From the IMG/VR virus record IMGVR_UViG_2703718806_000009: DNA of 8,057 bases; one strand, given 5' to 3'. Source of the stretch: a virus. Taxonomy: Duplodnaviria; Heunggongvirae; Uroviricota; Caudoviricetes. The translations under genes and the position numbers were made by a program. Of this stretch, positions 1,062-8,057 are shown in pieces. Position 1 is the first letter of the stretch; every line of letters begins with the position of its first letter. The notes beneath the pieces were generated by a model, which ran no database searches, was not told the origin of the DNA, and was given only the letters and a program-made list of their open reading frames with translations.

Positions 1062-1105
1062 TTGCCTCCATAGTCCACATAGTGTAACACTATGTGTTAT
1101 ATAAA
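1062..1105 (+). promoter_or_regulatory. putative promoter/operator of the toxin-antitoxin operon; 21-bp near-perfect palindrome CACATAGTGTAACACTATGTG at 1076-1096
   Basis: TTGCCT (1062-1067) as a -35-like hexamer, TATATA/TATAAA (1098-1105) as -10-like, and the palindrome overlapping them, ending 24 nt upstream of the toxin ATG (RBS GAGG 1111-1114). Type II TA operons are typically autorepressed by the antitoxin at palindromic operators. Confidence 0.4.
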
Positions 1106-1119
1106 ATGCAGAGGCAGGT

Positions 1120-1492
1120 ATGCGAATTTTCAAAAACGCCTGGTTTGAACGTTTCGCCCGAAAACATCGGATTTCCGATAAATCGCTGCGCAAAATCGTG
1201 GAGCAGGCCGATAAGGGGGATCATATCCGCAAATTTGGGTAGTGGTGTCATTAAACAAAGATTAGCCCGAAGTGGTGGCGGAAAATCAGGCGGTTACCGG
1301 ACAATAATTTTTTACCGCGTTGCAGAAAAAGCCTTTTTCATCTACGCATACGCAAAGAATGAACGAGAGAATATCACTGCTATAGAGGAAAATGCTTTTC
1401 GAAAAGCCGCTCCCCATGTCCTCAATCTTACTGATGAACAGCTGGCACAATTGATTCAACAAGGCCAGTTCACGGAGGTACCCAATGAGTAA
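1120..1492 (+). pseudogene. RelE/ParE-superfamily (HigB-like) mRNA-interferase toxin, interrupted by a +1 frameshift in a G5 homopolymer (1215-1219)
   Basis: Frame 1 from ATG 1120 gives MRIFKNAWFERFARKHRISDKSLRKIVEQADKGDHIRKFG then TAG at 1240-1242. Frame 2 continues ...GIISANLGSGVIKQRLARSGGGKSGGYRTIIFYRVAEKAFFIYAYAKNERENI... to stop 1490-1492. Removing one G restores a single ~123-aa ORF with the GGGKSGGYR..F.Y..KNE motif I associate with this toxin family. The track ORF start at 1094 is an artefact of the shifted frame. Confidence 0.6.
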
Positions 1493-1802
1493 AAATTACC
1501 GCAGTGATGCACTTGCATCTGTACATGAAATGATGGAGTCACTCCATGATATCGGTGCAATCACAAAACAAACTATGCGCGAATTCGATGAAACTTGTCT
1601 TCAGCCTGCGCCGGTAATGTCTCCAGAAAGGATCCGTGCACTGCGAGAACGCGAGCATCTGTCTCAACCTGTTTTTGCCAGATACCTCAACGTCAGTAAA
1701 AACCTGATATCAGACTGGGAACGAGGAGTGAAACGCCCGGGAGGTGCAGCTCTTCGGCTTCTTTCAGTTGTCGAGAAAAACGGGATCCAGGTAATATCCT
1801 GA
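1485..1802 (+). CDS. HTH DNA-binding antitoxin (XRE/YiaG-like) partner of the upstream toxin
   Basis: 105-aa ORF whose ATG overlaps the toxin stop (ATGAGTAA), with GGAGG 7-8 nt upstream. C-terminal half has an HTH-like signature (SPERIRALREREHLSQPVFARYLNVSKNLISDWERGVKRPGGAALRLL). Toxin-first order is typical of HigBA-like modules. Confidence 0.75.
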   Translation: MSKNYRSDALASVHEMMESLHDIGAITKQTMREFDETCLQPAPVMSPERIRALREREHLSQPVFARYLNVSKNLISDWERGVKRPGGAALRLLSVVEKNGIQVIS

Positions 1803-1819
1803 TATTCTAATACAACAAA

Positions 1820-1846
1820 ACCCGCCGAAGCAGGTTAAGTGCGGGT
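1820..1846 (-). terminator. probable intrinsic terminator at the 3' end of the hok transcript
   Basis: Stem ACCCGC (1820-1825) / GCGGGT (1841-1846). On the minus strand the hairpin is followed by UUUUGUUG (complement of 1812-1819). Lies ~60-85 nt downstream of the hok stop, between the convergent TA operon and hok. Confidence 0.4.
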
Positions 1847-2331: not shown

Positions 2332-2883
2332 TTAAAGCTCCATTAATTTTCCGGCCAGTTCATCTCGTGGCATTACCAGCCATCCGCGCGATTTAAGCAA
2401 AGCCAGGGCTTCTTCAACCGTCACCAGCTGGCCTGGCGCATAACTTCGGATGAAGGCGGTTTTATCGTCACGGATCGCCAGGTGAAAATCGATATTCATT
2501 TTTCCCATAGCCCGCTCTTTCTCGTACTGGTTGAAGTAACTGTCTTCGAGTTTTTCGAATACTTCCCACGCCTGATCGGTTTCGAGCATTTTTGCATGAC
2601 GGGCTGCTCCGCGTTCTGTCCAGAGGATGAGAGTGCGGGTTTTGGGAGAAATTTTCATCTCATTTTGCGACTCGTTTAAAACTAGTCGCAAATTTTTGAG
2701 CTCATCACCAACAGCTTTAAAGAAGTGTTTTCCCTCAATAAATCGAGATTTATTTTCATGGTGATTCTGCTGTATACGGATTGCTTCTGTTCCGTAAAGG
2801 CGGGCGAGTAACTCAGTTGTGATTACAGGAATCTGGTTATAAGTGACAGGGGAAAGGTTTTTGACAGTAACTTGAGTCGTCAT
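2332..2883 (-). CDS. ORF6N/KilA-N-like DNA-binding domain protein (phage antirepressor-like)
   Basis: 183-aa ORF with AGAGGG RBS ~8 nt upstream of the ATG. N-terminal segment IPVITTELLARLYGTEAIRIQQNHHENKSRFIEGKHFFKAVGDEL resembles the ORF6N pattern (..LA.LYG.E...I.QN...N..RF.EG..FF). C-terminal half not recognised. Confidence 0.6.
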   Translation of the reverse strand: MTTQVTVKNLSPVTYNQIPVITTELLARLYGTEAIRIQQNHHENKSRFIEGKHFFKAVGDELKNLRLVLNESQNEMKISPKTRTLILWTERGAARHAKMLETDQAWEVFEKLEDSYFNQYEKERAMGKMNIDFHLAIRDDKTAFIRSYAPGQLVTVEEALALLKSRGWLVMPRDELAGKLMEL

Positions 2884-3044
2884 GATAACGCCCTCTGGTT
2901 GATGAATTTAACTATCACCACCTTCAGGTCTCAATCATCAGGTGGCGAGACGTACAGGGTTGAGACTACCGGATCAACCAACCGGCCAGCCTTTCGGCTG
3001 CCCCATACGCCTCACCATAATTCAGATGTGCGTGCGCATACGAC

Positions 3045-3069
3045 AATAAAAAACACGCTCGCGGCGTGT
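3045..3069 (-). terminator. rho-independent terminator on the minus strand, ending the dicC-replication operon upstream of the ORF6N gene
   Basis: Stem ACACGC (3053-3058) / GCGTGT (3064-3069), loop TCGCG. On the minus strand the hairpin is followed by UUUUUUAUU (complement of 3045-3052). Minus-strand specific. Confidence 0.55.
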
Positions 3070-3154
3070 GTCTGTCGCGGTTGAATATCCGGGGTCTCAA
3101 TCCCGACGGTCAACTCGACCGTGCGGTGAATATAGCCCCGGATTAGTAATTACG

Positions 3155-3238: not shown

Positions 3239-3419
3239 CGTAAACTATCTCAGCGCCAATCAGTCCGTTTCGCTTCAGGCAGTCCATCGCTTTATACGGT
3301 AATTTGGCTGACAGGCGAAAATCACCCTGCAGCATCAGGCTTATTCCCTTATCCCGGGCTTTCGCTCTGACCGCTGCCTCGCTACGACCAATCAGACTGC
3401 CGATACTTTCGACAGTCAT
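3225..3419 (-). CDS. small hypothetical protein with HTH-like segment (64 aa from the ATG at 3419; track ORF extends to 3569)
   Basis: Track ORF 3225..3569, but its first 50 codons overlap the upstream gene by 91 nt and are R/G/A-rich. The internal Met gives MTVESIGSLIGRSEAAVRAKARDKGISLMLQGDFRLSAKLPYKAMDCLKRNGLIGAEIVYDDLA, with SIGSLIGRSEAAVRAKARDKGIS resembling a helix-turn-helix. Confidence 0.45.
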   Translation of the reverse strand: MTVESIGSLIGRSEAAVRAKARDKGISLMLQGDFRLSAKLPYKAMDCLKRNGLIGAEIVYDDLA

Positions 3420-3478
3420 CGTTCCCGCGCACTGCCGGAGTATCAGAATTTCAGCCCGGCACCACGTCTTCCACCCAC

Positions 3479-4240
3479 TCACCGCTGCTGTTCTCTGGTG
3501 GCGGTAATATCCCGGAGAATATCCCGGCACTTGTTCAGCTCCCGCAGCGCGGCGCAGACTCGCTCCCACTTCTGAACCTGACCTTTTGCCCGGCGCAGCT
3601 CGCGGTTAGCCACATGCAGCGATGGTAAAATCAGACCATCCGGATGTTTTCTGGTGAACGACGGCTGTGACTGCACTGTGACCGCCACACTTTCAGTTTT
3701 TATTTCTTCCTGTGTTTCCGCTTCCCGGACAGGTAACGCAATACCTGCTGGCTGAGGAATGGCTTTACCATCCGTTTCCGCTACGGATGCAGCTTCCGGC
3801 TCTGCCGGTAAATCAGCGCCCGGTATGCAGTAACGAAATTTACCGTTCTGATTTACGCGTGCCAGGCGCCCCGTTGCTGTTACGACCGCCAACGTGGAAG
3901 CAACCTTGCGAATGCTAACACCGAACTTATCCGCCAGTTCCTCACACGTTTTAGCCCCATCCTGACAGATAAACTCAATCATCATGTCCGCGGTAACTTT
4001 TTGTTCGACCTCCCCGGTCAGCACATCCGGTACTTCAGACTGTGCTGGCTGTTCTTCGGTTACCCCGGATTCACCTTCACCAGCCAGAAACCAGGTGTGA
4101 CCCGTTTTATCAACAACGCCATTTTCTTTGAGTTCCCACAGTTCGTTGAGAACTTCTTCACGGCTGATATCAAGCCGCGCCGCCAGTTCAACAGAATTGG
4201 CTTTACCCATCGCTTTCAGTGCATGCAATACGGTTTCCAT
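3479..4240 (-). CDS. prophage DNA-binding protein with two winged-helix-like repeats and an acidic linker (YdaW/DUF1627-like)
   Basis: 253-aa ORF with GGAGG RBS 9 nt upstream. Two repeats of a wH-like segment ([33 protein letters not shown] and [35 protein letters not shown]) separated by an E/Q-rich linker. Sits downstream of the dnaC-like gene as in Rac-type prophages. Family name is from memory. Confidence 0.65.
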
Positions 4241-5016: not shown

Positions 5017-5970
5017 CTACCCCCTGAAACCCGGCGGAATTTCGGTATCCGGTTCAGAAATATGATTCACGCAACGCTGCGCGGGACCACGCCACAGTCG
5101 AATAACCAGTTCATCCCATTTCTCACGGAGTTTTTCCGGGCTCTTGATGTTTTTTATCCAGAACGGATCCCGTTGTGCCCGGCTGAACATTTCGCAAATT
5201 TGTCTGTGACTTCTTCCATCCAGCATCCGCATTGTGCGCACGTCATTGGCCCACGCCGTCCAGTTGGGCTCTTTCGGTCGCGTGATCTCACCATCGTCAC
5301 TGGCAGCCTGTTCGTACAGGTTTACAACCCGCCCCCAGATCCACTGCGCACATGTCAAATCCTCCCGGGTTCCCCACTGGCGTTTTTTCACGCTGAACAC
5401 AACAGCATCAGGATGGCGGGTTAAAAACGCCTGTTCAGCCGTCAACTCGTCCGGTTGCGAAGCGTCCGGACAAGAGAGTTTTTTATTCTCTGTTGTATTC
5501 TCTGTAGGATCATCGGGCCATTTTGACCTGATGACATTGGGCCGTTTTGAACCAATGGAACGTTTCATTTTGACCTCTTCCATCGTGTCATTTTGACCTG
5601 ATGGAGTGGCGCATTTTGACCCGATGGATTCGTTCACTTTGCCATCATCTAAAAGCGCGCTATCGTAGTTAATTGTGTAAAAATTAGTCATATCACGCTT
5701 CGATTTATTGAGCTTTTCGCTACGCAAAAGCCCCAGCGCTTTCAGACTTGCAAACGCACGCTTTAACGTTGACTCTGACCAGAACGGAAACTGTTCCAGC
5801 CATTGTTCCGTTGTGTTGTAAATCCAGCGAACGCCATCACATTCCATGCCGGAACTGGTATCCCTCAACCAGTAATGCAGTTGCTGCAACACAATGGCTT
5901 CGTTTAAACCAATCTTCATCGCCAGCTGTGTGTTTATAACCAGCGGGCGTTCAGCAAAAAGAAGGCTCAT
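5017..5970 (-). CDS. phage replication initiator (O-like replisome organiser) with DnaT-like C-terminal tail
   Basis: Track ORF 5017..6012 begins with a GTG lacking an RBS; the ATG at 5970 (MSLLFAERPLV...) is preferred. C-terminus ...ISEPDTEIPPGFRG matches the C-terminal end of E. coli DnaT (..VSEPDSQIPPGFRG) as I recall it. The middle of the protein is encoded by the iteron array. Confidence 0.85.
   Translation of the reverse strand: MSLLFAERPLVINTQLAMKIGLNEAIVLQQLHYWLRDTSSGMECDGVRWIYNTTEQWLEQFPFWSESTLKRAFASLKALGLLRSEKLNKSKRDMTNFYTINYDSALLDDGKVNESIGSKCATPSGQNDTMEEVKMKRSIGSKRPNVIRSKWPDDPTENTTENKKLSCPDASQPDELTAEQAFLTRHPDAVVFSVKKRQWGTREDLTCAQWIWGRVVNLYEQAASDDGEITRPKEPNWTAWANDVRTMRMLDGRSHRQICEMFSRAQRDPFWIKNIKSPEKLREKWDELVIRLWRGPAQRCVNHISEPDTEIPPGFRG
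5519..5650. repeat. replication-origin-like iteron array inside the initiator gene: 5-6 copies of CATTTTGACC(T/C)GATGG at ~23-bp spacing, followed by a moderately AT-rich stretch
   Basis: Copies at 5519-5533 (CATTTTGACCTGATG), 5543-5558 (CGTTTTGAACCAATGG), 5566-5580 (CATTTTGACCTCTTC), 5589-5604 (CATTTTGACCTGATGG), 5612-5627 (CATTTTGACCCGATGG) and a degenerate 5635-5649 (CACTTTGCCATCATC). Start-to-start spacing 24,23,23,23,23 bp. Same layout as lambda ori within gene O. Confidence 0.7.
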
Positions 5971-6472
5971 AATTCCATCCGGCTTTTTGTTGGTACTGGT
6001 GACGATAGGCACGCTTGAAAGCGATTGCTTTTTCTATAAGCTCGTCTGTCTCACGTTCCACAACAGCTGGATCTGCAAAAAGCAGCCCGGACTCCACCAC
6101 ATCGCCATATTCTTTGTTTAACCCGGCAATCATGTACGTAATGCTTTTTCCGTCAGTAATTTCGCGGTACAACCTGAAATCACTAATCCGGATAGCCTCC
6201 ATAATTGCCGGAATCAGCGCCGTGAATTTTTCACGCTTATCCCTGGTGTCGATAGCCTTCCAGCGTTCGAATATCTTCACCCGGTTAACGCCAAGCGCAC
6301 GCTGATCAACCCCGCCATCATCAAGCGTGACACGCTGAACATCGATGTTCGGGCGTTCCTGTAGAGCCCAGAAGGCTTCAGTGATTAATATCGTCGCCTG
6401 CTCCTGCGTCATTCCTGGTCGGCTTATCCAGGCATCCAGGGCATCGCGTGCCTGCTCAAGGGTGATTTTCAT
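5951..6472 (-). CDS. YdaT-like protein (occupies the cII position between cro-like and replication genes)
   Basis: 173-aa ORF overlapping the dicC stop by 17 nt and the initiator start by 20 nt. Segment DKREKFTALIPAIMEAIRISDFRL resembles my recollection of Rac YdaT (REKIQKLIPAILAILPRELRHRL). Assignment is by memory and gene order. Confidence 0.55.
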   Translation of the reverse strand: MKITLEQARDALDAWISRPGMTQEQATILITEAFWALQERPNIDVQRVTLDDGGVDQRALGVNRVKIFERWKAIDTRDKREKFTALIPAIMEAIRISDFRLYREITDGKSITYMIAGLNKEYGDVVESGLLFADPAVVERETDELIEKAIAFKRAYRHQYQQKAGWNYEPSFC

Positions 6473-6686
6473 TGTTCAACCGCCCCGCCCGCTTCGTCTT
6501 ACGATATTCGTCATAAACTTTGGGGTCATACTGAAGCTCCCCGCCGGATGCCTCTTGCAGGCGCATCGCGCGACCTTCAGGTACTAGCTCCCCTTTCCAG
6601 CTATAAAGCGAAGCCAAACGAATACCAGCAGCTTGTGCAAGTTTTGTTTTTGAACCGAAATACAAAAGTGCATCAGTTTTAAGCAT
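6456..6686 (-). CDS. dicC: DicC-like Cro-type HTH regulator
   Basis: 76-aa ORF divergent from dicA. MLKTDALLYFGSKTKLAQAAGIRLASLYSWKGELVPEGRAMRLQEASGGELQYDPKVYDEYRKTKRAGRLNNENHP matches Qin DicC as I recall it, in length and sequence. Confidence 0.8.
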   Translation of the reverse strand: MLKTDALLYFGSKTKLAQAAGIRLASLYSWKGELVPEGRAMRLQEASGGELQYDPKVYDEYRKTKRAGRLNNENHP

Positions 6687-6769
6687 TTAAAACACCTTGG
6701 TAGTTAGTCATAGCTAACAAAATAAATGTTAACAAAAACATAGTCAATAAGGTTTAGCATTAGCTAACT
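6687..6769. promoter_or_regulatory. divergent dicC/dicA promoter-operator region with repeated operator-like dyads
   Basis: GTTAGTCATAGCTAAC (6703-6718, arms GTTAG/CTAAC) and TTTAGCATTAGCTAAC (6754-6768) in an 83-bp AT-rich intergenic between divergent repressor genes. Confidence 0.6.
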
Positions 6770-7177
6770 ATGGATACAAAAAATTTAACCATTGGCGAAC
6801 GCATTAGACATCGCCGAAAAAACCTCAAATACACCCAAAGGTCTCTTGCTAAAGCCCTGAAAATTTCTCATGTATCGGTTTCACAATGGGAACGGGATGT
6901 TAGCGAACCTACAGGGAAGAATCTTTTTGCCCTCAGCAACGTACTGCAGTGCTCGCCAACATGGATTCTATTTGGCGATGAAGACAAGCAGCCATCACCA
7001 CCTATTGAGGAGCCAGTTGCTCTATCCCCCAAAGAACATGAGCTCCTTGAGCTTTTTAATGCATTGCCTGAATCAGAACAGGATGCTCAGCTCACCGAGA
7101 TGCGCGCCCGAGTAAAAAATTTCAACAAACTCTTTGAAGAGTTATTAAAAGCCCGTCAACGAACAAACAAAAGATAA
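6770..7177 (+). CDS. dicA: DicA-like CI-type repressor (XRE-family HTH), repressor of the dicB division-inhibition operon
   Basis: 135-aa ORF MDTKNLTIGERIRHRRKNLKYTQRSLAKALKISHVSVSQWERDVSEPTGKNLFALSNVLQCSPTWILFGDEDKQP... matches E. coli DicA as I recall it. HTH at residues ~20-40. Confidence 0.9.
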   Translation: MDTKNLTIGERIRHRRKNLKYTQRSLAKALKISHVSVSQWERDVSEPTGKNLFALSNVLQCSPTWILFGDEDKQPSPPIEEPVALSPKEHELLELFNALPESEQDAQLTEMRARVKNFNKLFEELLKARQRTNKR

Positions 7178-7200
7178 CGCAATCAATGCGTTATCTTTTT
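7173..7200 (+). terminator. rho-independent terminator of dicA
   Basis: Perfect 9-bp stem GATAACGCA (7173-7181) / TGCGTTATC (7187-7195), loop ATCAA, followed by TTTTT (7196-7200). The stem overlaps the dicA stop codon. Confidence 0.7.
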
Positions 7201-7757: not shown

Positions 7758-7797
7758 TTTTCTGGTGATTCGGCGGAAATGGATATCCGCCATTTTT
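7758..7797 (+). ncRNA. dicF: DicF-like small RNA (short variant) ending in an intrinsic terminator
   Basis: UUUCUGGUGA (7759-7768), the 5' motif of DicF as I recall it, then terminator stem GGCGGA (7772-7777) / TCCGCC (7786-7791) and AUUUUU (7792-7797), between ydfA and dicB as in Qin. Boundaries approximate; the 5' end would be made by processing. Confidence 0.45.
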
Positions 7798-7974
7798 AAA
7801 GTGTATTTTGTGATGCGGTGAATGCGGCTAAGCGCACGCGGAACAGTTAAAACAAGCGGTCTTTTACTGGCGTAACAGACATCAACTAACAATCCGGCGT
7901 TAATTGTTAACTGGTTAACGTCACCTGGAGGCACCAGGCACCACATCACAAAATTCATTGTTGAGGACGCGATA

Positions 7975-8057
7975 ATGGAAACGTCACTACCAAACGTTAA
8001 TACGTCTGAAGGGTGTTTTAATATTGGTATTCTGCTCAGTAACCGGGAGTTTACTGA
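7975..8057 (+). CDS. dicB: DicB-like cell-division inhibitor, 5' partial (runs off window end)
   Basis: ATG 7975 with GAGGA RBS. METSLPNVNTSEGCFNIGILLSNREFT resembles the DicB N-terminus (M.T.LPNVNTSEGCF.IG...SN) as recalled; position immediately downstream of DicF. Confidence 0.55.
   Translation, partial: METSLPNVNTSEGCFNIGILLSNREFT

Follow-up and report, generated by a model that had tools for sequence, protein, structure and literature searches.

The window analysed here, a stretch of 8,057 nucleotides from a virus of the class Caudoviricetes (IMG/VR record IMGVR_UViG_2703718806_000009), carries a small toxin-antitoxin (TA) locus in which the toxin gene is interrupted at a run of five G residues and the antitoxin gene appears undamaged. 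The question raised by this locus is whether the supernumerary G is an error of sequencing or assembly, a switch by which the toxin is turned on and off, a shift site that the ribosome is able to bypass, or a genuine lesion. As it will be argued below, a real insertion of one G, i.e. ordinary toxin-first decay of a HigB2/HigA2 module with the antitoxin left as an orphan, is very probably the correct explanation.

The G5 run (GGGGG, 1215-1219) is located inside the toxin gene (Table 1). The frame-1 ORF (1120-1242) begins with the ATG at 1120 and, after AAG (1213-1215) and GGG (1216-1218), has read 33 correct codons, encoding MRIFKNAWFERFARKHRISDKSLRKIVEQADKG; these are followed by seven aberrant codons and a TAG at 1240-1242, giving a piece of 40 aa in total. 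Frame 2 is open through the TAA at 1490-1492, with no earlier stops downstream in that frame. In Pfam, the 40-aa piece matches positions 1-35 of PF06296 (E 5.8e-10, 39.9 bits; gathering cutoff 27 bits) and the piece in frame 2 aligns with positions 31-120 (E 8e-33, 113.6 bits). It is precisely at the G run that the two pieces adjoin in profile coordinates, which would not happen if unrelated ORFs lay next to each other by chance; the split is therefore real. Removal of one G yields a protein of 123 aa that covers the entire profile (1-120 of 120, E 1.4e-47, 161.3 bits); in the window itself no uninterrupted ORF spans the whole PF06296 domain, the frame being broken after codon 33. The toxin gene is situated upstream of a helix-turn-helix (HTH) antitoxin gene, and its stop codon falls within the first codons of the latter, the overlap amounting to 8 nt (ATGAGTAA). 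The operon occupies the plus strand and the flanking prophage genes are all on the minus strand. Sequence, ORFs and Pfam coordinates thus confirm what the first-pass annotation had proposed, namely that the toxin is split by a +1 frameshift in the G5 run, that deletion of one G restores a RelE/HigB-like toxin (seen here as a full-length PF06296 match), that the toxin stop overlaps the antitoxin start, and that the operon is set opposite to the minus-strand genes of the prophage.

Table 1. Features of the TA locus and its borders, in positions of the window.
Feature	Position	Strand	Remarks
Perfect 10-1-10 palindrome, CACATAGTGT-a-ACACTATGTG	1076-1096	.	Candidate operator for the HTH antitoxin
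Putative promoter core, TGTAAYACTATGTGTTATA	1083-1103	+	Block conserved between two diverged allele types in otherwise diverged upstream DNA; function inferred
Toxin codons 1-33, frame 1	1120-1218	+	Comprises beta1, alpha1 and alpha2 in the model
Frameshift site	1215-1219	+	G5: ancestral G4 (AAG GGG, K32-G33) with one inserted G
Toxin codons 34-123 and stop, frame 2	1220-1492	+	Beta-sheet core and C-terminal helices
Shine-Dalgarno sequence, GGAGG	1474-1478	+	6 nt upstream of the antitoxin ATG; function inferred from sequence
HigA2/YiaG-like antitoxin, 105 aa, intact	1485-1802	+	N-terminal region of ~45 aa, C-terminal XRE HTH (residues 48-100)
GC-rich hairpin and T run	1819-1836	-	Terminator for the convergent transcript of hokD; the TA cassette ends here on its 3' side

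The frame-corrected toxin has 1,418 homologues, in Salmonella, Chromatiaceae and Halomonas among others. Most of them are 123-129 aa long and share 59-67% identity with it across 98-100% of its length; the alignment to RelE/HigB-family toxins that had been suggested as a check is hence end to end for more than 1,400 proteins. In an alignment of 34 sequences, many of the first 33 residues are invariant, including R2, F4, K5, N6, A7, W8, F9, R11, F12, R14, K15 and G33, and the codon for G33 is part of the G run itself. The closest solved protein by sequence is HigB-2 of Vibrio cholerae (E 4e-4). An AlphaFold (AF2) model, built on a 99%-identical intact allele (pLDDT 81.4), consists of beta1 (residues 2-6), alpha1 (7-15), alpha2 (20-31), a four-stranded sheet (37-77) and C-terminal helices. 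Its top Foldseek matches in the PDB are all V. cholerae HigB2 (probability 0.99-1.0, TM 0.47-0.62), followed by HigB1, RelK, YoeB and ParE, so that the modelled fold is of the RelE/BECR type and resembles solved HigB2. PF06296 has been described as a HigB2-type family of ribosome-dependent mRNases with toxin/antitoxin gene order, often accompanied by YiaG-like HTH antitoxins (2025 survey, PMC11980606). No NCBIfam model matches the toxin, and among the known defence systems of PADLOC the toxin has no match and the antitoxin generic HTH matches only.

The product of the antitoxin gene is recognised by Pfam as HTH_3 (32.3 bits, cutoff 23), and its closest solved matches are the HigA-2 chains 5JAA and 5J9I (E 6.7e-8 over residues 45-99), the C-terminal XRE helix-turn-helix thus being homologous to that of HigA2. 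For the N-terminal extension of ~45 aa, sequence search shows no detectable similarity to the disordered region of HigA2. The match to the YiaG model NF007481 (E 2.7e-5) is below the curated cutoff, and the NCBIfam matches to MqsA, YiaG, DicA and NadS all fall below cutoff. Of 26 copies examined, 25 encode the complete protein, with the same sequence in 22, and the sole incomplete copy (L009) ends at the edge of its locus. The claim of an intact antitoxin was borne out as well, the 105-aa ORF being complete and containing HTH_3. Since the gene possesses its own GGAGG 6 nt from the ATG, its translation need not rely on coupling to the toxin.

Pfam, the homologues, the sequence matches to HigB2 and HigA2 and the fold search all agree with the earlier type II TA call: the locus is a HigB2/HigA2-type type II TA operon (PF06296/XRE-HTH) with the toxin gene first. 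Judged from the sequence, the copy in the window is a non-functional member of this family, its toxin being presumably dead as the frameshift separates the sheet core from the conserved strand and helices of the N-terminus. RefSeq/PGAP treats the G5 toxin either as two CDSs (40 aa and 85 aa) or as one 132-aa ORF with a spurious GTG start, and annotates these fragments as ordinary CDSs and not as pseudogenes. One must bear in mind that the 85-aa or 132-aa C-terminal ORF may retain residual activity, which would count against a simple loss of the toxin.

The palindrome (Table 1) lies 24 nt upstream of the toxin ATG, and an arm of at least 10 nt was obtained in 19 of 20,000 shuffles of the region 1000-1130 (p about 0.001). 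A 6-3-6 inverted repeat, TAACAC/GTGTTA (1085-1099), overlaps an extended -10-like TGnTATATA (1095-1103). A scan with the sigma-70 consensus called no promoter directly upstream of the toxin; the extended -10 is put forward as a candidate on the ground of its conservation. HigA2 of V. cholerae, on its own, binds a single inverted repeat extending from after the -35 across the -10 region (KD 25 nM) and represses in vivo (PMC11006873). By analogy, the palindrome may act as the operator, and the orphan antitoxin plausibly still represses its own synthesis. An A at position 1081 makes the palindrome perfect, and a G at this position leaves 9 of 10 arm positions paired. 1081G is present in all G4 alleles and in one G5 sub-clade, and 1081A is found solely within the toxin-dead G5 clade; the G-to-A change may be a compensatory operator change or may simply have hitch-hiked.

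To follow the G run among related prophages, 5,426 complete Escherichia coli genomes were searched, 169 of which contain the TA locus. The G5 span is present in at least 53 of these 169 genomes and the remainder have an in-frame G4 run. With a 161-nt query that includes the promoter and the G run, 24 identical matches, 12 with one mismatch and 17 with two were found, all of them with the G5 span; the G4 copies, whose span is 160 nt, rank lower and are invariably 1081G. As exact strings, the G4 allele (89-mer) was retrieved from 113 records, O157:H7, O26 and O145 strains among them, and the G5 allele (90-mer) from 37. A gapped pattern scan of IMG/VR returned 16 contigs, 12 with G4 and 4 with G5. 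Neither G3, G6 nor any other run length was encountered in the 169 genomes and 16 contigs. The strains with G5 come from several countries and include O104:H21, O113:H21, O22:H8, O43, O91 and O178:H19. The collection of species-representative genomes gave no match to the same G-run pattern, which limits the allele, at the level of exact matches, to particular E. coli strains. The comparison of G4 and G5 across related prophages, recommended by the first-pass annotation, accordingly reveals both alleles, G5 being present in at least 53 of 169 genomes and in 4 of 16 contigs.

These counts bear directly on the reading that the extra G is a homopolymer error of sequencing or assembly and that the module is in fact intact. 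Homopolymer indels are a common type of error, and the G5 run of the window is known from assembled sequence. However, 24 complete genomes, produced in different laboratories and countries, share the 161-nt haplotype of the window (1081A together with G5) without a mismatch, and the run has been found in at least 53 independent complete genomes and four IMG/VR contigs. Moreover, G5 co-segregates with flanking SNPs, which random errors would not produce. The error offered as one option in the first-pass annotation was therefore rejected on the allele counts in complete genomes and IMG/VR, and its probability seems close to nil.

The association of G5 with its flanks was followed in 22 aligned copies. 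A1625 is present in all 8 G5 copies and in 2 of 14 G4 copies (Fisher p = 1.4e-4); of the other G4 copies, 11 have G and one has T, and the two with A belong to a visibly different haplotype. A G4 allele with 1081A was not found among the 169 genomes. The G5 clade comprises at least three sub-haplotypes. In one sub-clade of 12 G5 genomes, an A-to-T change at 1136 (at the equivalent position in L012 and L025) results in N6I, N6 being invariant across the 34 family members of the alignment; the substitution is consistent with relaxed selection on a dead toxin. At the site of the G run the outgroup allele reads AAC GGG CTT, and G5 is therefore the derived state.

That outgroup belongs to a diverged allele of the TA module (85% amino acid and 79.6% DNA identity), which was found in 38 complete genomes and in Escherichia phage PhiR12_3. 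The latter (79.6% identity) is the sole full-length relative in the phage GenBank collection, where the other matches cover only the hok-flank end of the query. The toxin genes of the diverged allele were located at 2540-2910 in locus L006, at 1521-1890 in L023 and at 1521-1892 in L024. In strain SCU-104 the diverged toxin is intact (A5 run, 123 aa), but in PhiR12_3 and about 31 of the 38 genomes an A5-to-A4 change at toxin codons 15-17 causes a -1 frameshift, and the O104:H4 outbreak strains, e.g. 2011C-3493, add to the A4 frameshift a further 1-bp deletion near codon 95. In every copy of the diverged allele examined, the antitoxin is complete. Comparison of the two allele types in their intact form gives pN/pS ratios of 0.10 (toxin) and 0.07 (antitoxin), the synonymous sites being close to saturation. 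Purifying selection had thus acted on both genes for a long time before the recent losses of the toxin. The toxin has thus been lost independently in two allele lineages, by G4-to-G5 in one and by A5-to-A4 in the other, and the antitoxin has been kept both times.

The circulation of both G4 and G5 in E. coli, along with the breakage of the second allele type in a homopolymer too (A5 to A4), might be taken to mean that the G run is a phase-variable switch turning the toxin on and off within populations, as had also been considered at first. Known contingency loci have runs of roughly 7 nt or more. The tract here, of 4-5 nt, is too short, and it has two lengths only in the 169 genomes and 16 viral contigs; G5 is fully linked to A1625 in the 22 copies, 1081A occurs with G5 only, further mutations have accumulated in the G5 sub-clades, including N6I, and the diverged allele of O104:H4 has a second frameshift. 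A slippage-prone switch is hence not supported: the haplotype linkage and the lack of other tract lengths led to its rejection, and it must be regarded as very unlikely. The two lengths, the SNP linkage, the sub-haplotypes and the short tract together point to a single old heritable insertion.

It is also conceivable that the lesion is bypassed, either by a +1 slip of tRNA-Gly on GGG-G (1216-1219) or by reassembly of the fragments into an active toxin. Re-pairing in the P site from GGG to GGG is possible and would give a product identical to the G4 toxin, resulting in low, regulated expression; the run is contained within an SD-like TAAGGGGGAT, and the downstream frame has no further stops in the window. 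On the other hand, only one clade has the shift; the frame is intact in more than 1,400 homologues and in two thirds of the E. coli copies. The A-site codon, GAU, is neither a stop nor rare, and a correctly spaced upstream stimulator is missing. The site thus differs from a programmed +1 frameshift of the prfB kind in that it is not conserved, has GAU in the A site and is confined to one decaying clade. The replacement of the invariant N6 and the doubly frameshifted O104:H4 allele likewise indicate relaxed constraint, and bypass seems extremely improbable.

With error and switch ruled out, the option left from the first-pass annotation is a real inactivation that leaves an orphan antitoxin, and the situation that was to mark an ordinary decayed pseudogene, homologues sharing the same frame break, is indeed what is observed, G5 being common to dozens of strains. 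The sequence of events would then be as follows. The TA operon, complete with a promoter and an operator of its own, would form an independent cassette directed against the surrounding transcription in a Qin/Rac-like lambdoid E. coli prophage, with the antirepressor/hokD region on one side and the nin-like genes on the other. The intact G4 toxin would be a ribosome-dependent mRNA endonuclease, as judged from the V. cholerae relative (about 24% identity). By the same analogy, the antitoxin would neutralise the toxin by means of its N-terminal region and, through its HTH as a dimer at the inverted repeat that covers the -10, would keep the operon repressed. Entry of a single G into AAG-GGG (K32-G33) would end translation after 40 residues, so that no toxin would be made. 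The insertion presumably occurred once, was inherited stably and has since reached many E. coli strains, non-O157 STEC as well as others, and the orphan antitoxin, with a strong ribosome-binding site of its own, most likely still represses its own promoter. TA modules usually decay by loss of the toxin first, as a cell deprived of the antitoxin before the toxin would die.

A further reading accepts the loss of the toxin as real and supposes that the orphan antitoxin is kept by selection, either for anti-addiction or counter-defence against HigB2-type toxins encoded by competing prophages or by hosts, or as a stand-alone transcription factor. It is compatible with decay and adds a function to the antitoxin. 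The antitoxin is complete in every full-length toxin-dead copy examined, in two independent lineages of loss, including PhiR12_3, a phage deposited as a complete genome; its gene has its own strong SD, and the palindrome-perfecting 1081 G-to-A change is found in the toxin-dead clade only. Orphan genes resembling antitoxins are a known means of counter-defence in phages (PMC11825919). Against this, an intact antitoxin ORF is not a proof of selection, because the G5 clade is young (no more than 3 SNPs per 1.5 kb) and an ORF of 318 nt that has remained intact over such a time is uninformative. In addition, the locus is present in two places in only 6 of the 169 genomes and the diverged allele (38 genomes) is in none of the 53 listed G5 genomes, so that usually there is no close resident toxin to neutralise. 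Retention by selection hence seems unlikely on the whole. The more specific proposal that the antitoxin is a selected orphan directed against toxins of the HigB2 type from competing prophages or from defence modules of the host, and that 1081 G-to-A tuned autorepression in compensation for the loss of the toxin as co-repressor, is quite unlikely. Plain decay remains the preferred explanation.

In near-identical loci of RefSeq, the genes for DUF968, RusA and Q precede the TA operon, and hokD, an ORF6N antirepressor, replication genes and dicC/dicA/dicB follow it. The type I toxin gene hokD (PF01848, E 4e-23; 1905-2060 in RefSeq) is on the minus strand within 1905-2229 of the window, and an Rfam sok/hok leader element is found at 2055-2229 (117 bits, minus strand). 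It is convergent with the type II operon, two unrelated TA systems thus standing tail to tail. A perfect 10-4-10 palindrome is present in the hok 3' region (1875-1898), and a perfect 20-bp palindrome (10-0-10), GATATGGGAATTCCCATATC, is situated at 2295-2314, just 3' of the antirepressor gene. The slot adjoining the TA operon is a hotspot for TA genes (2251-2934 in L023, 2216-2521 in L024): in O104:H4 it holds a doc-family toxin with a small upstream ORF, and in SCU-104 an extra HigA-family antitoxin gene without an adjacent toxin, an apparent orphan.

A C4 antisense RNA (RF01695, 69 bits) and isrK (RF01394, 51 bits) were detected at 2938-3135 on the minus strand, just upstream of the ORF6N antirepressor gene (2332-2883, minus strand). 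Together with this gene they look like a P1/P7 immI-like or Gifsy-type RNA-controlled module in a dicB/dicC-type prophage. At about 3303-3482 (minus strand), RefSeq lists a truncated "DNA-binding protein" pseudogene that lacks its C-terminus and overlaps the start region of a DUF1627 gene; it is present in all related prophages examined and represents another decayed gene. The early region (5951-6472, minus strand, and 6456-7177) is Qin/Rac-like, with a YdaT-family "toxin" protein in the cII position, then dicC (cro-like) and a divergent DicA-like HTH repressor gene (6770-7177, plus strand), at the 3' end of which a perfect 13-5-13 palindrome is located (7169-7199). A sub-threshold match to STnc100 precedes dicB (7790-8007).

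The consequence of the frameshift is mainly one of annotation, as toxin fragments, or the 132-aa ORF with a false N-terminus, are listed as RelE/ParE toxins in dozens of STEC genomes; in RefSeq a single pseudogene with a frameshift should be recorded instead. The G4/G5 polymorphism may serve as a simple lineage marker that separates prophages of the O157/O26/O145 type from those of O104:H21, O113:H21, O22:H8, O91 and related STEC. The locus is, moreover, a clean natural example of toxin-first decay, and the twofold loss of the toxin with the antitoxin kept makes it a possible test case for anti-addiction or counter-defence roles of prophage orphan antitoxins.

Literature searches found no paper on this E. 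coli prophage module, but several known systems are close to it. In the Qin prophage of E. coli K-12, relBE-hokD (relBEF) is presumably a comparable arrangement, in which a type II TA system of the RelE superfamily adjoins hokD in a defective lambdoid prophage of the dicB/dicC type. The K-12 RelE is a member of PF05016, and relBE is antitoxin-first and co-directional with hokD, whereas the toxin of the window belongs to PF06296 and its operon is toxin-first and convergent with hokD. A precedent for orphan antitoxins is the chromosomal ccd system, which acts in anti-addiction. The phage DarG-like counter-defence genes (PMC11825919) are likewise antitoxin genes that a mobile element retains although no functional partner toxin accompanies them. 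Unlike such orphan and anti-addiction antitoxins, that of the window arose by a recent frameshift in situ, and a neutralising or counter-defence role is putative. The bicistronic PF_RelE-YiaG modules (PMC11980606) have, as in the window, a PF06296 toxin upstream of a YiaG-like HTH antitoxin, but the toxin of the window is without the extended disordered N-terminus and its antitoxin matches YiaG below the curated cutoff.

Likeness to HigB2/HigA2 of V. cholerae (PDB 5JA8, 5JAA, 8A0X; PMC5416850, PMC11006873) extends to PF06296 and the toxin-first order, to the RelE-like fold of HigB2, which is the top structural match to the toxin, to an antitoxin with an N-terminal tail and a C-terminal XRE-HTH (E 6.7e-8), and to an inverted repeat over the -10 region, which in the window is predicted. 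The differences are that the toxin of the window is only about 24% identical to HigB2, is frameshifted and presumably dead, that the host element is a lambdoid prophage and not a superintegron, and that the inverted repeat is 10-1-10 or 6-3-6 instead of 7-5-7 and has a different sequence. Nothing in the module departs from known TA biology.
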